A DNA stretch of 31,240 nucleotides from Desulfotomaculum sp. (GTDB lineage Bacteria; Bacillota; Desulfotomaculia; Desulfotomaculales; Desulfohalotomaculaceae): NCBI GenBank assembly GCA_021129815.1, contig JAJOKN010000115.1:1-31240 (forward strand), in the 5' to 3' direction. Each line of letters opens with the position of its first letter. Position 1 is the stretch's first letter. Below, one piece after another: positions 1 to 25,074 of the stretch. The notes beneath the pieces were generated by a model. That model had not been told where the DNA came from. It saw only the letters and a list, made by a program, of their open reading frames with translations, and did not search any database. The translations under genes and the position numbers were made by a program.

Positions 1-282
1 AGAACAATGGTTCCTATACGTCAATTAGGAGAGATTGTAGGAGGTAGTTTTGAATACGATGAAGAAAACAAAAAAATTGTTTTTATATCAAGAGATAAAG
101 AAATAGTTATTTATATTGACAAAGAAGAAGCTTTTATTAATGAAAAGCCAGTACCTTTAGATGTTCCAGCTATGATAATTGATGGTCGAACACTTATGCC
201 GTTACGTTTTGTGGGAGAGGCATTGGATTTTGATGTTGATTACCTTGAAGAAGAAGATATGGGACTAGTGATTCTTAACTAA
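1..282 (+). CDS. Copper amine oxidase N-terminal (stalk) domain protein, 3' part; frame open at the window edge
   Basis: MVPIRQLGE...LDVPAMIIDGRTLMPLRFVGEALDFDV matches the repeated GRTxVPLRFxxE motif of the stalk domain. Confidence 0.7.
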   Translation, partial: RTMVPIRQLGEIVGGSFEYDEENKKIVFISRDKEIVIYIDKEEAFINEKPVPLDVPAMIIDGRTLMPLRFVGEALDFDVDYLEEEDMGLVILN

Positions 283-300
283 TAAAACAGAGATGTTTTG

Positions 301-346
301 GTGTTAAAAGGTACTTGCTATACCTTTTAACACTTATTTGTTTTTT
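301..346 (+). terminator. Rho-independent terminator
   Basis: 13-bp stem GTGTTAAAAGGTA/TACCTTTTAACAC (301-313/321-333) followed by a T-rich tract. Confidence 0.8.
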
Positions 347-578
347 ATATAGATATTGTTTTTAATAAAGATAAATTTTGGGATAAGCTTTAAGATTTAT
401 TTGCAAGAGATAATATGGTTTAGAATTAATGCAGAAAAGTATATGAAAATGAAAGAGGATTGTGTATGGAAAAGATATAGTAAAAATAACAACATGCCCC
501 TGCAAAAGTTGTGTAAAAAATTTGTTGCTGGACTTGCGCAATAGTGCAAGTAATTTATTATTCATGTTAAATGTGTAA

Positions 579-607
579 TTGACAACTCAACATAGTTAAT
601 GTAAAAT
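579..607 (+). promoter_or_regulatory. SigA-type promoter for the tRNA-Arg/tadA/tRNA-Ser/ffs region
   Basis: TTGACA (579-584), 17-nt spacer, TAAAAT (602-607). Confidence 0.75.
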
Positions 608-645
608 ACATTAGGCATGGGGTGTCTATTAGGGTAGGCTTTTAT

Positions 646-721
646 GCCCCCGTAGCTCAGGGGATAGAGCAGCGGTTTCCTAAACCGCGTGTCGGAGGTT
701 CGAGTCCTTCCGGGGGCACCA
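646..721 (+). tRNA. tRNA-Arg(CCT)
   Basis: 76-nt cloverleaf; anticodon arm GCGGT-TTCCTAA-ACCGC; GTTCGAGTC T-loop; encoded CCA. Confidence 0.97.
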
Positions 722-756
722 TGAGTTTTTGATTTTTTGTTTTTAGGGAAGGAAAA

Positions 757-1203
757 GTGGAACATATACATTATATGCGTGTTGCACTTGAGGAGGCAAA
801 AAAAGCATATAGAATTGGAGAAGTGCCCGTGGGGGCGGTGGTTGTTCTTCGTGGAAATATAATAGCTACAGCACATGATTTGCGGGAGTCGCTGAATGAT
901 GCTTCTGCTCATGCAGAACTCTTAGCAATGAGAGAAGCAGCTCAAGTACTTGGTGATTGGCGTTTAAATGATACAACCCTATATGTTACCATTGAACCCT
1001 GTGCTATGTGTGCAGGAGCAATTGTTCAATATAGAGTAGGACGTTTGGTTTATGGTGCGAGAAATGACAAATCGGGTTGTGTAGACAGCGTGCTCAATAT
1101 ATTACAACAACCAAAATTTAACCATAGGGTTGAAGTTATATCAGGTATATTGGAAGAAGAGTGCAAAAGCATTATTAAAGATTTTTTTAGACAAATACGC
1201 TAG
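757..1203 (+). CDS. tadA: tRNA adenosine(34) deaminase
   Basis: EVPVGAV, HAE and EPCAMC zinc/catalytic motifs; 148 aa; GTG start after AGGGAAGG. Confidence 0.95.
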   Translation: MEHIHYMRVALEEAKKAYRIGEVPVGAVVVLRGNIIATAHDLRESLNDASAHAELLAMREAAQVLGDWRLNDTTLYVTIEPCAMCAGAIVQYRVGRLVYGARNDKSGCVDSVLNILQQPKFNHRVEVISGILEEECKSIIKDFFRQIR

Positions 1204-1296
1204 GAGAGATGGCCGAGTTGGTCGAAGGCGCTCGACTCGAAATCGAGTGGGCTGTAAAAAACAGCCTCCAGGGTTCGAATCCCTGTCTCTCCGCCA
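1203..1296 (+). tRNA. tRNA-Ser(CGA)
   Basis: Acceptor stem GGAGAGA/TCTCTCC, discriminator G plus CCA; anticodon arm CTCGA-CTCGAAA-TCGAG; long variable arm. Confidence 0.96.
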
Positions 1297-1339
1297 AGAA
1301 TCTGTGTTTTTATACTTTTTAACTCAAGCTTTGCTACTT

Positions 1340-1431
1340 GGAGAGGTGGCCGAGTGGTTTAAGGCGCACGCCTGGAAAGCGTGTAGGCAGTAAAGCCTGC
1401 CTCCAGGGTTCAAATCCCTGTCTCTCCGCCA
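1340..1431 (+). tRNA. tRNA-Ser(GGA)
   Basis: Acceptor stem GGAGAGG/TCTCTCC plus GCCA; anticodon arm CACGC-CTGGAAA-GCGTG; long variable arm. Confidence 0.96.
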
Positions 1432-1433
1432 TT

Positions 1434-1708
1434 GTGATCGTGCTAGATGGGGAGGTAGCGGTGCCCTGTACCCGCAATCCGCTATAGCGGGGTCGAATGC
1501 CTGCTCGCGGGGGCAGCTTGTAGTGTGGGCTGCTAAAGAGGGGATGTTGATAATCGGGTCTTGCGCGACGCAAGCTCTCGAACCGTGTCAGGTCCTGACG
1601 GAAGCAGCACTAAGGGAGTACTTGCGGGTGTTGCAAGGGTGCCTGATTGGAGTTTCCTCTGGCAGTACCAGCTAGGAGCTGTTTCTCAAAAGCAGGCTGC
1701 ACGATCAC
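1434..1708 (+). ncRNA. ffs: Large (Bacillus/Clostridium-type) SRP RNA with Alu domain
   Basis: Terminal helix GTGATCGTGC/GCACGATCAC; Alu-like GGGAGGTAGCGGTGCCCTGTAC; helix 8 motif GTCAGGTCCTGACGGAAGCAGCAC; usual position upstream of dnaX. Confidence 0.93.
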
Positions 1709-1740
1709 GTTACATATGCAACAATATGTAAAAGCATTTC

Positions 1741-1771
1741 AAAATAGTTCTTACAAGAAGAACTATTTTTT
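1741..1771 (+). terminator. Rho-independent terminator after ffs
   Basis: 12-bp stem AAAATAGTTCTT/AAGAACTATTTT, 5-nt loop, T tract. Confidence 0.8.
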
Positions 1772-1862
1772 ATTTTTCTTAAAAAGGGACAGGTTATTTT
1801 AGTGTAGAAGATGTATATGTTTATAAAATTGTAAAATATATTTTTATTAGGTTGTGATTTTC

Positions 1863-3584
1863 TTGAGTCATTATCAAGCACTGTATAGAAAGTATAGACC
1901 TAAAAAATTCAATGACATTGCAGGACAGCAGCATATTATACGTACGCTTAAGAATGCTGTTTTGAATAATCGGATAAGTCATGCATATATATTTTGCGGA
2001 CCAAGAGGTACTGGTAAAACAACTACGGCTAAAGTATTAGCAAAAGCTTTAAATTGTATAAATTTGCAAGATGCAGAACCGTGTAACTTGTGCAAGAATT
2101 GTGCAGCTGCAAATAGTGGTGCTAGCTTGGATATAATTGAAATAGATGCTGCATCAAATCGCGGTATTGAAGATATAAGAGAACTGCGTGAAGAAGTTAA
2201 ATATTCTCCTGTGGGAGGCAGGTACCGCATTTATATAATAGACGAAGTGCACATGTTGACTATTGAAGCATTTAACGCGCTGCTTAAGACGCTTGAAGAG
2301 CCTCCTGAGCATGTGATTTTTATACTAGCTACAACTGAACCGCAAAAAGTACCGCCGACCATCTTATCCAGATGCCAGAGGTTTGATTTCAGACGTATCA
2401 GTGTAGAAGACATGTTGAAGAGATTGAAATATGTAGCACAGGACATGGGAATTAATGCGAACGATGAAGTTCTTAGAGTTATCGTTGACTTTGCTGAAGG
2501 TGGGCTTAGGGATGCACTTAGCATTTTGGAGCAATGTTCTGTGTTTGGACAGGGCAACGTTACATTGGAAAACATATACACCATGTTAGGAGTAGTGGAT
2601 AAAAAGAACTTAAAAAATATGACAGCTTATTTGTTAAGAGGAGATGCAAAAGGAGCTTTAGAATTAATTGATGAGCTTTTTAAACAAGGTAAAGATTTGA
2701 GGTTGTTTGTAAAGGAGCTATGTGAATACTTAAGAAAGTTATTATTGTATTTAATTTCAAAAAATGCAGATTTAGATGGTTCAGCTATTTATGTAAAAGA
2801 GGATGTATTGGATTTAGGCTTAAATACAAATAGTGACTTAATAAATATTGTTAAAATTATTGAAAAATTAGCTCGTTTAGAATATGATATGAAATGGAGT
2901 TCACAGCCCAAATTATTCTTAGAATTAGCAGTTATCGATGTTATTATAGGTAATTCTGGTAAAGAAAATTCTACTAGCTTGCAAACTGAAGAAAATGCCA
3001 TGCTTTCTTGTGAAACTTTAAGTAAGCGTAGAACAAGTGAGTGCAGTATAATTGGTAGATCTGAAACAAAAGAAATAAGCACAAGTAAACCTAAAATACC
3101 TAACACTGCGATTGGAGGACCGTTGAAACAAAACTTGCAAGTTGATGCAGGTGAGGAAGACACACGTGCTATAAGCGATGAAAGCGAAGGGGTTGTGAAA
3201 AATAATAAAGATAATGAAGAAAACAAAGACTTTTCTGAAGAAGTTTTGAAAAATAAATGGGAGGAAATTTTAAACCAAGCAAAAAAAATTAAGCTGCCAG
3301 CTTATGGTTTCTTTAGAGAAGCAGAAGTAGTCAGTGTGTCTTTAAAAGATGCAAGTGCTATGCTTACAGTTGGATTTAAACCTAAGTATTCTAAATTTCA
3401 TAAGGTAATGGCTGAAAAAGAAGAAAACAAAAATGTTTTATCAAAAGCGCTTTCAAAAGTATTAGGTGGTGCTTGGAGTATAAATATAACTGATATTGAT
3501 GATAAACAGCTTTTAGAAAAGAATAATATACTTGTAAAAGAAGCAATAAAATTTTTTGGTAAAGATAAGGTAGAGATTGATTAA
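1863..3584 (+). CDS. dnaX: DNA polymerase III subunit gamma/tau
   Basis: ALYRKYRP, Walker A GPRGTGKT, zinc CxxCxxC, DEVHML, SRC motif. TTG 1863 preferred as start; GTG 1854 is the alternative. Confidence 0.96.
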   Translation: MSHYQALYRKYRPKKFNDIAGQQHIIRTLKNAVLNNRISHAYIFCGPRGTGKTTTAKVLAKALNCINLQDAEPCNLCKNCAAANSGASLDIIEIDAASNRGIEDIRELREEVKYSPVGGRYRIYIIDEVHMLTIEAFNALLKTLEEPPEHVIFILATTEPQKVPPTILSRCQRFDFRRISVEDMLKRLKYVAQDMGINANDEVLRVIVDFAEGGLRDALSILEQCSVFGQGNVTLENIYTMLGVVDKKNLKNMTAYLLRGDAKGALELIDELFKQGKDLRLFVKELCEYLRKLLLYLISKNADLDGSAIYVKEDVLDLGLNTNSDLINIVKIIEKLARLEYDMKWSSQPKLFLELAVIDVIIGNSGKENSTSLQTEENAMLSCETLSKRRTSECSIIGRSETKEISTSKPKIPNTAIGGPLKQNLQVDAGEEDTRAISDESEGVVKNNKDNEENKDFSEEVLKNKWEEILNQAKKIKLPAYGFFREAEVVSVSLKDASAMLTVGFKPKYSKFHKVMAEKEENKNVLSKALSKVLGGAWSINITDIDDKQLLEKNNILVKEAIKFFGKDKVEID

Positions 3585-3607
3585 ATTATTTTAGGAGGAG
3601 ATAAGTT

Positions 3608-3925
3608 ATGTTTGGTGGCAACATGAATAAGATGATGAAGCAGGTACAAAAAATACAACAGGATATAGCTAAAATGCAAGAAGAATTAGCTAATCGCACG
3701 GTGGAGAGCACTGCAGGTGGTGGAGCAGTGAAAGTGGTGGCTAATGGGCGCCAAGAACTCGTGAAAATAGAGATTAAGCCAGAAGCAGTGGATCCTGAAG
3801 ACATAGAAATGCTGCAAGATTTGGTGTTAGCAGCTGCAAATGAAGCACTGCGCAAGAGTCAAGAAATGGCAGCCAATGAAATGAGCAAAATAACAGGTGG
3901 AATAAAAATTCCTGGAATGTTTTAA
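3608..3925 (+). CDS. ybaB: YbaB/EbfC nucleoid-associated protein
   Basis: MMKQVQKIQ...AGGGAVKV...[12 protein letters not shown]; lies between dnaX and recR. Confidence 0.93.
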
Positions 3926-3931
3926 AGGTTT

Positions 3932-4537
3932 ATGAAGCATATTATATCGCCTGTTGATCGTCTGGCAGAAGAGTTATCAAAACTTCCTGGAATAGGTATA
4001 AAAACTGCACGGAGAATAGCTTTTTACTTGCTGAATGAACCATCTCAAGTGGCAAAGAACTTGGCAAGTGTAATATTGGAGGCGCGCAGTGCAATTAAAT
4101 ATTGCAGTATTTGTGGCAATCTCACAGAAAAAGATCCGTGCAGCGTCTGTAGCGATCCTGCTAGGGATAAGGGTGTGATCTGTGTAGTTGAGTATCCAAA
4201 GGACTTCATAGCAATTGAAAAAACAGGTCAGTTCAGTGGAGTATATCATGTGTTGCACGGGACGCTATCTCCTATGGAAGGCATAGGTGTAGATGATTTA
4301 AACATAAAGAATTTAATCAAAAGATTAAAGCAAGGAAAGGTAAAAGAAGTTATTTTAGCTATGAGTTCCACTGTTGAAGGAGATACTACAGCTATGTATT
4401 TGTCTCGCTTGCTAAAGGACTTTAAAGTAAAAGTTACTCGTTTAGCATATGGCATACCTGTAGGTGTGGATTTAGAATATACAGATGAGTACACCTTGAG
4501 CAAAGCGCTTATGGGCAGACATGAAGTAGATGAATAA
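3932..4537 (+). CDS. recR: Recombination mediator RecR
   Basis: LPGIGxKTAxR HhH motif, C4 zinc finger, YHVLHGTLSP Toprim, GxDLEY. Confidence 0.97.
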   Translation: MKHIISPVDRLAEELSKLPGIGIKTARRIAFYLLNEPSQVAKNLASVILEARSAIKYCSICGNLTEKDPCSVCSDPARDKGVICVVEYPKDFIAIEKTGQFSGVYHVLHGTLSPMEGIGVDDLNIKNLIKRLKQGKVKEVILAMSSTVEGDTTAMYLSRLLKDFKVKVTRLAYGIPVGVDLEYTDEYTLSKALMGRHEVDE

Positions 4538-10505: not shown

Positions 10506-10534
10506 TTGAATTTTTTCATAAACTGTGCTACAAT
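10506..10534 (+). promoter_or_regulatory. SigA-type promoter of rnpB
   Basis: TTGAAT, 17-nt spacer, TACAAT with extended TGn; ends just upstream of P1. Confidence 0.7.
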
Positions 10535-10541
10535 TAACTTC

Positions 10542-10916
10542 CCCAAGAGTACAGCGGGCAGTCGCTGCCTTTGCTGTTGGAGGCAAAGGTAGAGGAAAGT
10601 CGAGACGCACACAATTCCTTTTTAAGGAGTTGTAGTATGGAGCCCAGTGCAAGCTGGGGCAGGGCGACCTGACGACGGCGAAAAAAACTCCTAAAGACGG
10701 AGTTTTGAGTAGCCATAAAGTGCCACAGAAACCAGGTCATCGGGCGACCGATGAGTGCAAGGGTAAACTCCTCCAGTGCGCAACCCAAATAGGCGAAAGG
10801 CTTTTTAGCCGATCGCGGGTAGGGGCGCCCCTTAAAAAGGGGAAGGGAATTATGTTTGGTTCTCTTAGATAGATGACTGCCCTCGACAGAATCTCGCTTA
10901 CAGCTGTGCTCTTGGG
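10542..10916 (+). ncRNA. rnpB: RNase P RNA with B-type-like S-domain and extra A-like P16/P17 elements
   Basis: P1 CCCAAGAGTACAGC/GCTGTGCTCTTGGG; P2 GGGCAGTC/GACTGCCC; GAGGAAAGTC...ACAGAA...GCTTA P4 flanks; AGTGCCACAG, GGTAAAC, CAACCCAAAT and AGATAGATGACTG conserved blocks. Confidence 0.92.
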
Positions 10917-24578: not shown

Positions 24579-24735
24579 AAAACAGCAAACAAATAATCGT
24601 GTTGGGTTATTTACTTGGATTTAGCAATAACCAAGATTTTGATAGTCCATGTTAAAGCTATATTCGTAAGGAGGTGATGTCTTTTTATAGGCGAAAAGAT
24701 TTTAAACTTTGATTAACTAAATAATCATTTGAACT

Positions 24736-24888
24736 TCTTAAAGCGCCTGGACCTAGTTTTTTATAGAAAAACTAGGTTGACGAGGAGGAGGTTTATCGAA
24801 CGATCGGCGGATGCCTCCCGGTTGCTCACGACCGTTAACGATACCACAAAAACACAGGCAACTGTGCTACAAAAGGTATCAGGTGAGA
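24736..24888 (+). ncRNA. glmS ribozyme (GlcN6P-activated); predicted cleavage A24742/G24743
   Basis: AGCGCC, P1 ACCTAGTTTT/AAAACTAGGT, GACGAGG, TTTATCGA...TCGGCGGATGCC, P4 GATACC/GGTATC, P3.1 CTCAC/GTGAG; upstream of glmS. Confidence 0.95.
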
Positions 24889-25074
24889 TGAGTTGGTATT
24901 TGTGTTTTTAAGGAAGTAATAAGGGGTTTGTTTTTAAAGCATTTCACAATTTAAGGAAATACTGTAAAAGAATTAATAAAAACTGGTGTTAGTTTGTAAA
25001 AAAGTTATTTTAGTTTCAGAATTGATTGAAAAAAATTTTAATAGGTAAAAGAAAGGAGAGTTTAACTTTAAAAA

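Follow-up and report, generated by a model that had tools for sequence, protein, structure and literature searches.

The RNase P RNA gene on the forward strand of the window, as we call the 31,240-nucleotide stretch of Desulfotomaculum sp. DNA analysed here, joins a type B body to a P15/L15/P16 module of the type A kind, as revealed by the alignment, the junction letters and covariation. In our best explanation, which we hold with a probability of roughly 80%, it is the sole RNase P RNA of its genome, has a type B body with a type A-style CCA site, and carries beyond L15 an arm that is a kept P16, possibly together with P17. The mosaic form is real, but an entire clade shares it, and sequences that show it have been publicly available for a long time. 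More surprising is that type A and type B genes reside together in single genomes, a finding that we judge to be real.

Bacterial RNase P RNAs are commonly divided into type A, marked by P6, P16 and P17, and type B, marked by P5.1, P10.1, P15.1 and P15.2. Type C, known from another phylum, sets some B-like helices in a type A frame and is regarded as convergent. To our knowledge no bridge between A and B has been described inside the Firmicutes. The type C RNA of Thermomicrobium roseum (Chloroflexi), described as an A/B intermediate, combines P6, P16 and P17 with P10.1 and P15.2 (PMC7191817, PMC4919922); set against that description, the window RNA is instead type B in its frame, with a single A-like module retained. 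In a paper of 2020, P16 counts among the hallmarks of type A and the lack of P6, P16 or P17 is a criterion of type B (PMC7191817), and the reviews of 2016, 2020 and 2024 present a plain A/B/C scheme in which a P16-bearing type B RNA goes unmentioned (PMC4919922, PMC7191817, PMC11143913). Our literature search, which did not extend to the comparative papers of 1996 and 1998, found neither a P16-bearing type B RNA nor a natural genome with both A and B genes; the former may have been described before.

Rfam searches and reading of the sequence identified the stretch 10542-10916 as a genuine rnpB gene. Using cmscan, the RNaseP_bact_b model (RF00011, gathering cut-off 97 bits) matched 10550-10905 on the forward strand along its whole length (model positions 1-365 of 365) with 143.1 bits (E 1.1e-39), and the RNaseP_bact_a model (RF00010, cut-off 100 bits) gave 86.3 bits on 10546-10916. 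This comparison, which the original prediction had proposed, places the RNA above the threshold for type B and below that for type A. For scale, the order's true type A RNAs score 292-334 bits on RF00010. Canonical type B RNAs of the same phylum reach 315-316 bits on RF00011 compared to 143 for the window RNA, and the P16-bearing type B RNAs of the clade just 100-160 bits. A consensus scan located a promoter-like site upstream of the gene (Table 1), from which a transcript start near 10541-10543 is predicted, fitting the first P1 pair at 10542.

Table 1. Helices and other features of the window RNA, in window coordinates, followed by the positions of RNase P RNA genes in genomes that hold two (contig:positions).
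Feature	Position	Strand	Basis or score
Promoter-like site TTGAAT, 17 nt, TG-n-TACAAT (extended -10)	10506-10534	+	consensus scan only
P1, 14 bp	10542-10555 with 10903-10916	+	alignment against sequence
P2	10556-10562 with 10876-10882	+	alignment against sequence
P3 hairpin	10565-10592	+	alignment against sequence
P4, conserved bulged U at 10600	10597-10604 with 10893-10899	+	alignment against sequence
P5	10606-10610 with 10776-10780	+	alignment against sequence
P5.1 hairpin, 8 bp, 7-nt loop UUUUUAA at 10619-10625	10611-10633	+	alignment and sequence
Specificity domain	10638-10775	+	alignment and sequence
P7	10638-10642 with 10771-10775	+	alignment and sequence
P8, GCAA loop	10643-10658	+	alignment and sequence
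P9, GCGA loop	10660-10671	+	alignment and sequence
P10	10674-10675 with 10769-10770	+	alignment and sequence
P10.1, stem AAAACUCC/GGAGUUUU, internal loop GAAA/GAGUA	10677-10714	+	alignment and sequence
P11	10720-10724 with 10762-10768	+	alignment and sequence
P12, GCGA loop	10737-10754	+	alignment and sequence
P15/L15/P16 module	10784-10824	+	alignment, sequence, folding
P15, CCC/GGG	10784-10786 with 10822-10824	+	alignment and sequence
J15/16, AAAUAG	10787-10792	+	alignment and sequence
P16-like arm	10793-10816	+	covariation of five basal pairs, folding
Arm, basal helix GCGA/UCGC	10793-10796 with 10813-10816	+	covariation and folding
Arm, internal loop AA/GA	between basal and distal helices	+	folding
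Arm, distal helix GGCU/AGCC, loop UUUU at 10803-10806	10799-10802 with 10807-10810	+	folding
J16/15, GGGUA, holding the GGU for the tRNA 3'-CCA	10817-10821	+	alignment and sequence
P15.1 hairpin CCCC/GGGG, loop UUAAAAA at 10832-10838	10828-10842	+	alignment and sequence
P15.2, third catalytic-domain hairpin, last before the P2 3' strand in the Rfam model	10843-10866	+	alignment and sequence
3-nt spacer UCG at the place of P19, between the P2 and P4 3' strands	10883-10885	+	P19 of the model deleted
RNase P RNA pair, G001	C2:6442-6799 and C9:81095-81383		
RNase P RNA pair, G003	C7:31196-31557 and C3:132139-132463		
RNase P RNA pair, G248	C47:131046-131446 and C167:34039-34379		
Type A gene, G154	C1:1485450-1485801		305 bits
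Type B gene, G154 (L113)	C1:448478-448824		190.8 bits

Reading the sequence against the Rfam alignment recovered P5.1, P10.1, P12, P15.1 and P15.2, all of which had been proposed from the letters and lie where they had been placed. The third hairpin of the catalytic domain is the one called P15.2 in the Massire/Hartmann naming (PMC5066622). P12 leads directly into GUGCAAGGGUAAAC, the 3' strand of P11, so that P13 and P14 are absent, and only UCG stands at the place of P19; both absences had been anticipated. The seven nucleotides of L5.1 are the exact complement of those of L15.1, giving seven Watson-Crick pairs in a loop-loop contact that is established for type B RNAs (PMC5066622).

Compared with the type B RNAs of Bacillus subtilis and Geobacillus stearothermophilus (RF00011), the window RNA is alike in P5.1, P10.1, P15.1, P15.2 and the L5.1-L15.1 contact, and is likewise without P6, P13, P14 and the P17/L17 pseudoknot. 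It departs from them in having no P19 and in its L15, which is internal and bears a P16-like arm where theirs is apical. The score on RF00011, the full-length match, P5.1, P10.1 in the place of P13/P14, P15.1/P15.2 and the complementary loops all assign the RNA to type B. The remaining mark of that type, an apical L15 with no P6, P16 or P17, is seen only in part, in that P6 and the L17 pseudoknot are absent but L15 is internal and the P16-like helix covaries. Judged on the sequences we read, it is a mark that fails across the whole clade and not in the window RNA alone. Against type A (RF00010, E. coli M1 RNA and the type A RNAs of the order), the window RNA shares the universal core P1-P5 and P7-P12 and the arrangement P15-AAUAG-P16...GGGUA-P15, with its internal L15 and GGU motif. 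It differs from type A in having P5.1, P10.1 and P15.1, in a third hairpin that has no GNRA loop, and in the absence, from both alignment and sequence, of the P6 pseudoknot, P13/P14 and P17/L17; its RF00010 score also lies under the cut-off.

The module at the centre of this mixture spans P15 and everything it encloses. L15 takes up 7 positions in the B model and 31 bases in the window RNA, and RNAfold, applied to 10784-10824, gives P15 and an internal loop topped by a stack of two helices (-15.7 kcal/mol), in keeping with the AAATAG/GGGTA internal loop and two-helix extension that had been predicted. Its junctions AAAUAG and GGGUA are letter for letter those of the type A RNAs in the same order, which read GACC-RAAUAG-GGGGAAC...(P17, loop GGCCCG)...GUUCCCC-GGGUA-GGUC. 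In canonical type B RNAs of the phylum L15 is, by contrast, an apical loop, AAAUAAUGGUA or AAAUUAUGGUA, and the L15 of B. subtilis has been described as apical (PMC1874595). In neither the alignment nor the sequence did we find a P6 partner for the arm. P17 may have left a remnant in the arm's distal helix, though this helix is without a GGCCCG-type loop.

All 16 type B RNAs found among 40 relatives hold a hairpin between AAAUAG and GGGUA. A pattern search with these loop flanks over 185,579 species genomes returned 56 loci, and 55 of them fold as hairpins; the other, in Moraxella oculi (L077), was rejected as a chance match whose sequence does not fold. The fixed flanks of the pattern hide variants but cannot generate covariation in the helix, and one carrier with slightly altered flanks, from a high-GC family outside the order (G128), was found by the model search only. 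We then measured covariation in an alignment (A1) limited to the 41 columns of the P15-P16 module, with 54 rows, 45 of them distinct. Among the 45 distinct homologues the five basal pairs of the arm are paired in 98.7% of cells, and four of the five show double-sided changes (C-G/U-A; A-U/G-C; G-C/A-U; C-G/G-C/U-A). None of 500 shuffles reached the observed covariation, and sliding the partner strand by 1-3 columns as a control lowered pairing to 33-47%. The original prediction had named homologue covariation as a check, and its outcome supports the arm. On this comparative evidence the P16-like helix is real and conserved.

The arm is also widespread. We found the L15 extension in all 55 named and all 26 other type B relatives that we read. 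Every type B RNA read from the Desulfotomaculales carries the arm, and so do those of four cultured heliobacteria (Heliobacterium chlorum, H. mobile, Heliophilum fasciatum and Heliorestis acidaminivorans) and of one further family. Named carriers include Desulfotomaculum, Desulforamulus, Desulfocucumis, Desulfoscipio, Desulfallas, Desulfotruncus, Desulfovirgula, Sporotomaculum and Pelotomaculum. Since all type B RNAs read in the clade share it, the arm is a clade-wide variant and not a one-off. The RNAs of the heliobacteria and the Desulfotomaculum group have the same architecture, the P16-like arm and identical L15 junctions, and the window RNA belongs with them. It is 86-91% identical to its family relatives; its nearest named relative, at 84% identity, is the record of G001, from its own family. 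The description as a structural intermediate, offered by the original prediction, is thus fair for the form, but not as something special to this genome. The alternative offered there, a new subtype, is not supported at the level of sequence: the B model covers the RNA over its whole length and, as far as public sequences go, its extension is already present in known type B RNAs, an outcome that the original prediction had itself listed as refuting. By sequence it is an ordinary member of its clade.

One contig labelled 'Actinomycetota bacterium' (JAMCVT010000031.1, locus L060) holds a P16-bearing type B RNA typical of the Desulfotomaculales, and is probably mis-binned or mislabelled.

Across the type B RNAs the length of the arm varies between 12 and 47 nt. 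Most lineages have one hairpin of 5-6 bp there; the window's family and the clade holding Desulforamulus aquiferis (f13) have a two-helix arm, that of the window's family with an internal loop. The longest, two-helix arms of 44-47 nt, occur in Pelotomaculaceae (loci L114, L115, L117 and L124 in G280, G282, G271 and G283) and look like P16 plus P17, nearer to a full P16/P17 than the arm of the window RNA. In a maximum-likelihood tree the type B RNAs cluster by the family of their genomes (window's family f1, 100/99; heliobacteria, 100/100; f13, 100/99), which points to old vertical inheritance within families, and the P16-bearing set separates from the other type B forms at 97/92. The tree, built on type B RNAs from outside the Bacilli and Clostridia and without a species tree, is unrooted as to the direction of change (a helix kept or regained).

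Two accounts of the arm can be weighed on these data. It may have entered an ordinary type B RNA as a secondary expansion hairpin in an apical L15 and come to resemble P16 by convergence, and the wide variation in arm length and sequence would fit such an origin, as would the missing P6 pairing and the occurrence of apical-loop and L15-less type B RNAs in the same phylum. The variable distal part and the lack of a P6 partner, both like an expansion hairpin, are points that speak against a kept remnant. One would not, however, expect an insertion to restore the two junction strings of type A; the apical-loop type B RNAs that we read have neither the AG of AAAUAG nor the initial G of GGGUA, and the arm occurs in every family of the clade that we read. 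We regard insertion as unlikely. From the type A identity of the two junction strings we infer that the arm survives from a type A P16, possibly with P17, and was not inserted later.

In 139 genomes of the order we found about 71 with a full type A RNA, about 66 with a type B RNA and 8 with both. Counting also genomes outside the order, both genes occur together in the window's family and in three other families. Our claim of co-residence rests on four genomes. The first, G154, comes from outside the order and is closed, with 3.3 Mb in a single contig. The second is G248, the isolate Desulfotomaculum copahuensis LMa1; its type B locus is identical to the record of that name. The other two (G001 and G003) belong to the window's family, are 99% complete with 0-1% contamination, hold the genes on contigs of 81-258 kb, and are supported by these contigs, by synteny and by a single rnpA. 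The two-gene loci of the four genomes are L089, L019, L090, L006, L118, L108 and L113, and G154 likewise has one rnpA.

Four Pelotomaculaceae bins (among them G280, G282 and G271) also hold both genes, with the type B genes on contigs of 2-14 kb, small enough that a binning error is possible; in G283, of the same family, the type B gene was found alone. A further genome with both (G221) was not counted, being 86% complete and 5% contaminated with its type A gene on a tiny contig. We also observed two full type A RNAs in one genome of the order (G195; C134:256-615 and C4:4266-4725, loci L126 and L125; 322.5 and 303.4 bits), where the second copy could be a strain mixture, one of the two lying on a 1.3-kb contig.

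In the window's family the two genes occupy separate, conserved sites. The type A gene follows trmK-NIF3-zinc ribbon, and the type B gene has rimO-pgsA on one side and, on the other, an FtsH-like gene and then cinA-recA. In the genus that has type A only (g6), the B site is intact with only 155-198 nt from pgsA to the next gene. In the type B-only G002 and in the window genome it is the A site that is intact, but it holds no gene in its gap of 134 and about 300 nt, respectively. Both genes are present in two members of the family, and one of the two is missing from each of the others. A comparison of G001 with G003 gives 88.2% identity for the type A genes and 89.8% for the type B genes, so the type B lineage evolves no faster than the type A lineage and neither copy is decaying. 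The rnpB locus of the window is itself rearranged, with rsmI upstream in place of rimO-pgsA, and it lacks the two genes that elsewhere separate rnpB from cinA.

Because type A and type B genes share genomes in these relatives, there was opportunity for the P15-P16 module to be copied from a co-resident type A gene by gene conversion or recombination, which would make the mosaic a chimera and would account for the identical junction strings. The stems argue against this. The P16 stems of the type B RNAs (GCGA, GCGG, GCAG, GUGA and others) are unlike the GGGGAAC/GUUCCCC of the type A RNAs in the same genomes and order, P17/L17 with its GGCCCG leaves no trace in the type B RNAs, and by eye we saw no A/B identity beyond the 6+5 junction letters. 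We consider such copying very improbable.

The window genome (G000) has a size of 1.19 Mb, where those of its family mates are 2.3-3.2 Mb, and a GC content of 37.3%. It is 92.6% complete in 141 contigs, and the window gene is the only RNase P RNA found in it. This degree of completeness, and the fact that relatives can hold two genes, would leave some room for the window RNA to be a decaying or non-catalytic paralogue, with the real RNase P encoded elsewhere, by a type A gene missing from the assembly or as a protein-only enzyme. We give this almost no credence, as the site where a type A gene would be expected is assembled and empty, every core helix is preserved, as are the GGU and P4 with its bulged U, the RNA is as close to its family relatives as noted above, and the type B genes of G001 and G003 are no less conserved than the type A genes. 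In the same window we observed three tRNAs (646-718, 1203-1293 and 1340-1428), a large SRP RNA of the Bacillus type (1438-1704) and a glmS ribozyme (24731-24891), all above the Rfam cut-offs.

Taken as the sole RNase P RNA with a kept type A-style module, the window RNA would be the catalytic subunit of RNase P and, together with the single RnpA (one rnpA gene in the genome, on contig C62), would remove the 5' leaders of pre-tRNAs. P5.1 and P15.1 are predicted to kiss through the pairing of their seven-nucleotide loops, P10.1 stands in for P13/P14, and the RNA does without a P6 pseudoknot. P15 opens into the AAAUAG/GGGUA internal loop, its far side closed by the P16-like arm. Pairing of GGU with CCA is found in both types A and B (PMC11143913), and in E. 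coli L15 is the site of CCA and metal-ion binding (PMC1874595). As all 27 tRNA genes detected in the window genome encode the 3'-CCA, the GGU of J16/15 may be expected to pair with the CCA of the pre-tRNA. The arm probably serves to close and stiffen the L15 loop at this CCA and metal-ion site.

A third form of type B RNA, found in two other families of the phylum (L113 in G154, L110 in G116, L112 in G075, L109 in G142 and L133 in G060; 175-194 bits), has a plain P15 hairpin, CCCUC-UGA-GAGGG, without an L15 loop or GGU. The closed genome G154 thus holds a GGU-less type B RNA beside a GGU-bearing type A RNA, and the pair of sequences hints at a division of labour. Three RNA-seq runs from pure cultures contain the type B locus of G154 (97-99% of sampled words), and words of the type A gene occur in two of the three (81-89%). 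Summed contig depth was 75,000-430,000 on the type B gene compared to 200-4,200 on its flanks, with a peak that matches the gene borders. By this measure type B dominates the RNA-seq of the species at its own locus; the depth is that of Logan contigs, a rough indicator of expression that may include DNA carry-over, and was profiled for the type B locus only, the type A gene being given as a share of words.

How a type B RNA came to replace type A is a 30-year-old question of ribozyme architecture. The two-gene state in the window's family means either that both genes were present in the family ancestor or that type B was acquired and type A then lost. We tentatively propose, at somewhat short of even odds, that the switch from A to B went through a two-gene stage and not through the remodelling of one essential gene, that the P16-bearing type B RNA is its least derived survivor, and that the 'abrupt' jump was a duplication or acquisition followed by reciprocal loss. 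Together, the two-gene route and a type B form that is closest to type A offer a concrete path for the change. A type A module across a whole clade of type B RNAs, alongside co-resident genes with reciprocal loss, makes the question testable, and cultured organisms are available for this in Desulfotomaculum copahuensis and the closed-genome species with RNA-seq data.

The findings also matter for annotation, where the P16-bearing RNAs score low on RF00011 and clan competition hides the second gene. In one family (f4), in which all classified RNAs are type B, three genomes (G214, G227 and G213) gave hits of 102-104 bits on RF00010 by score alone, just above the type A cut-off, and automatic annotation could mislabel them.
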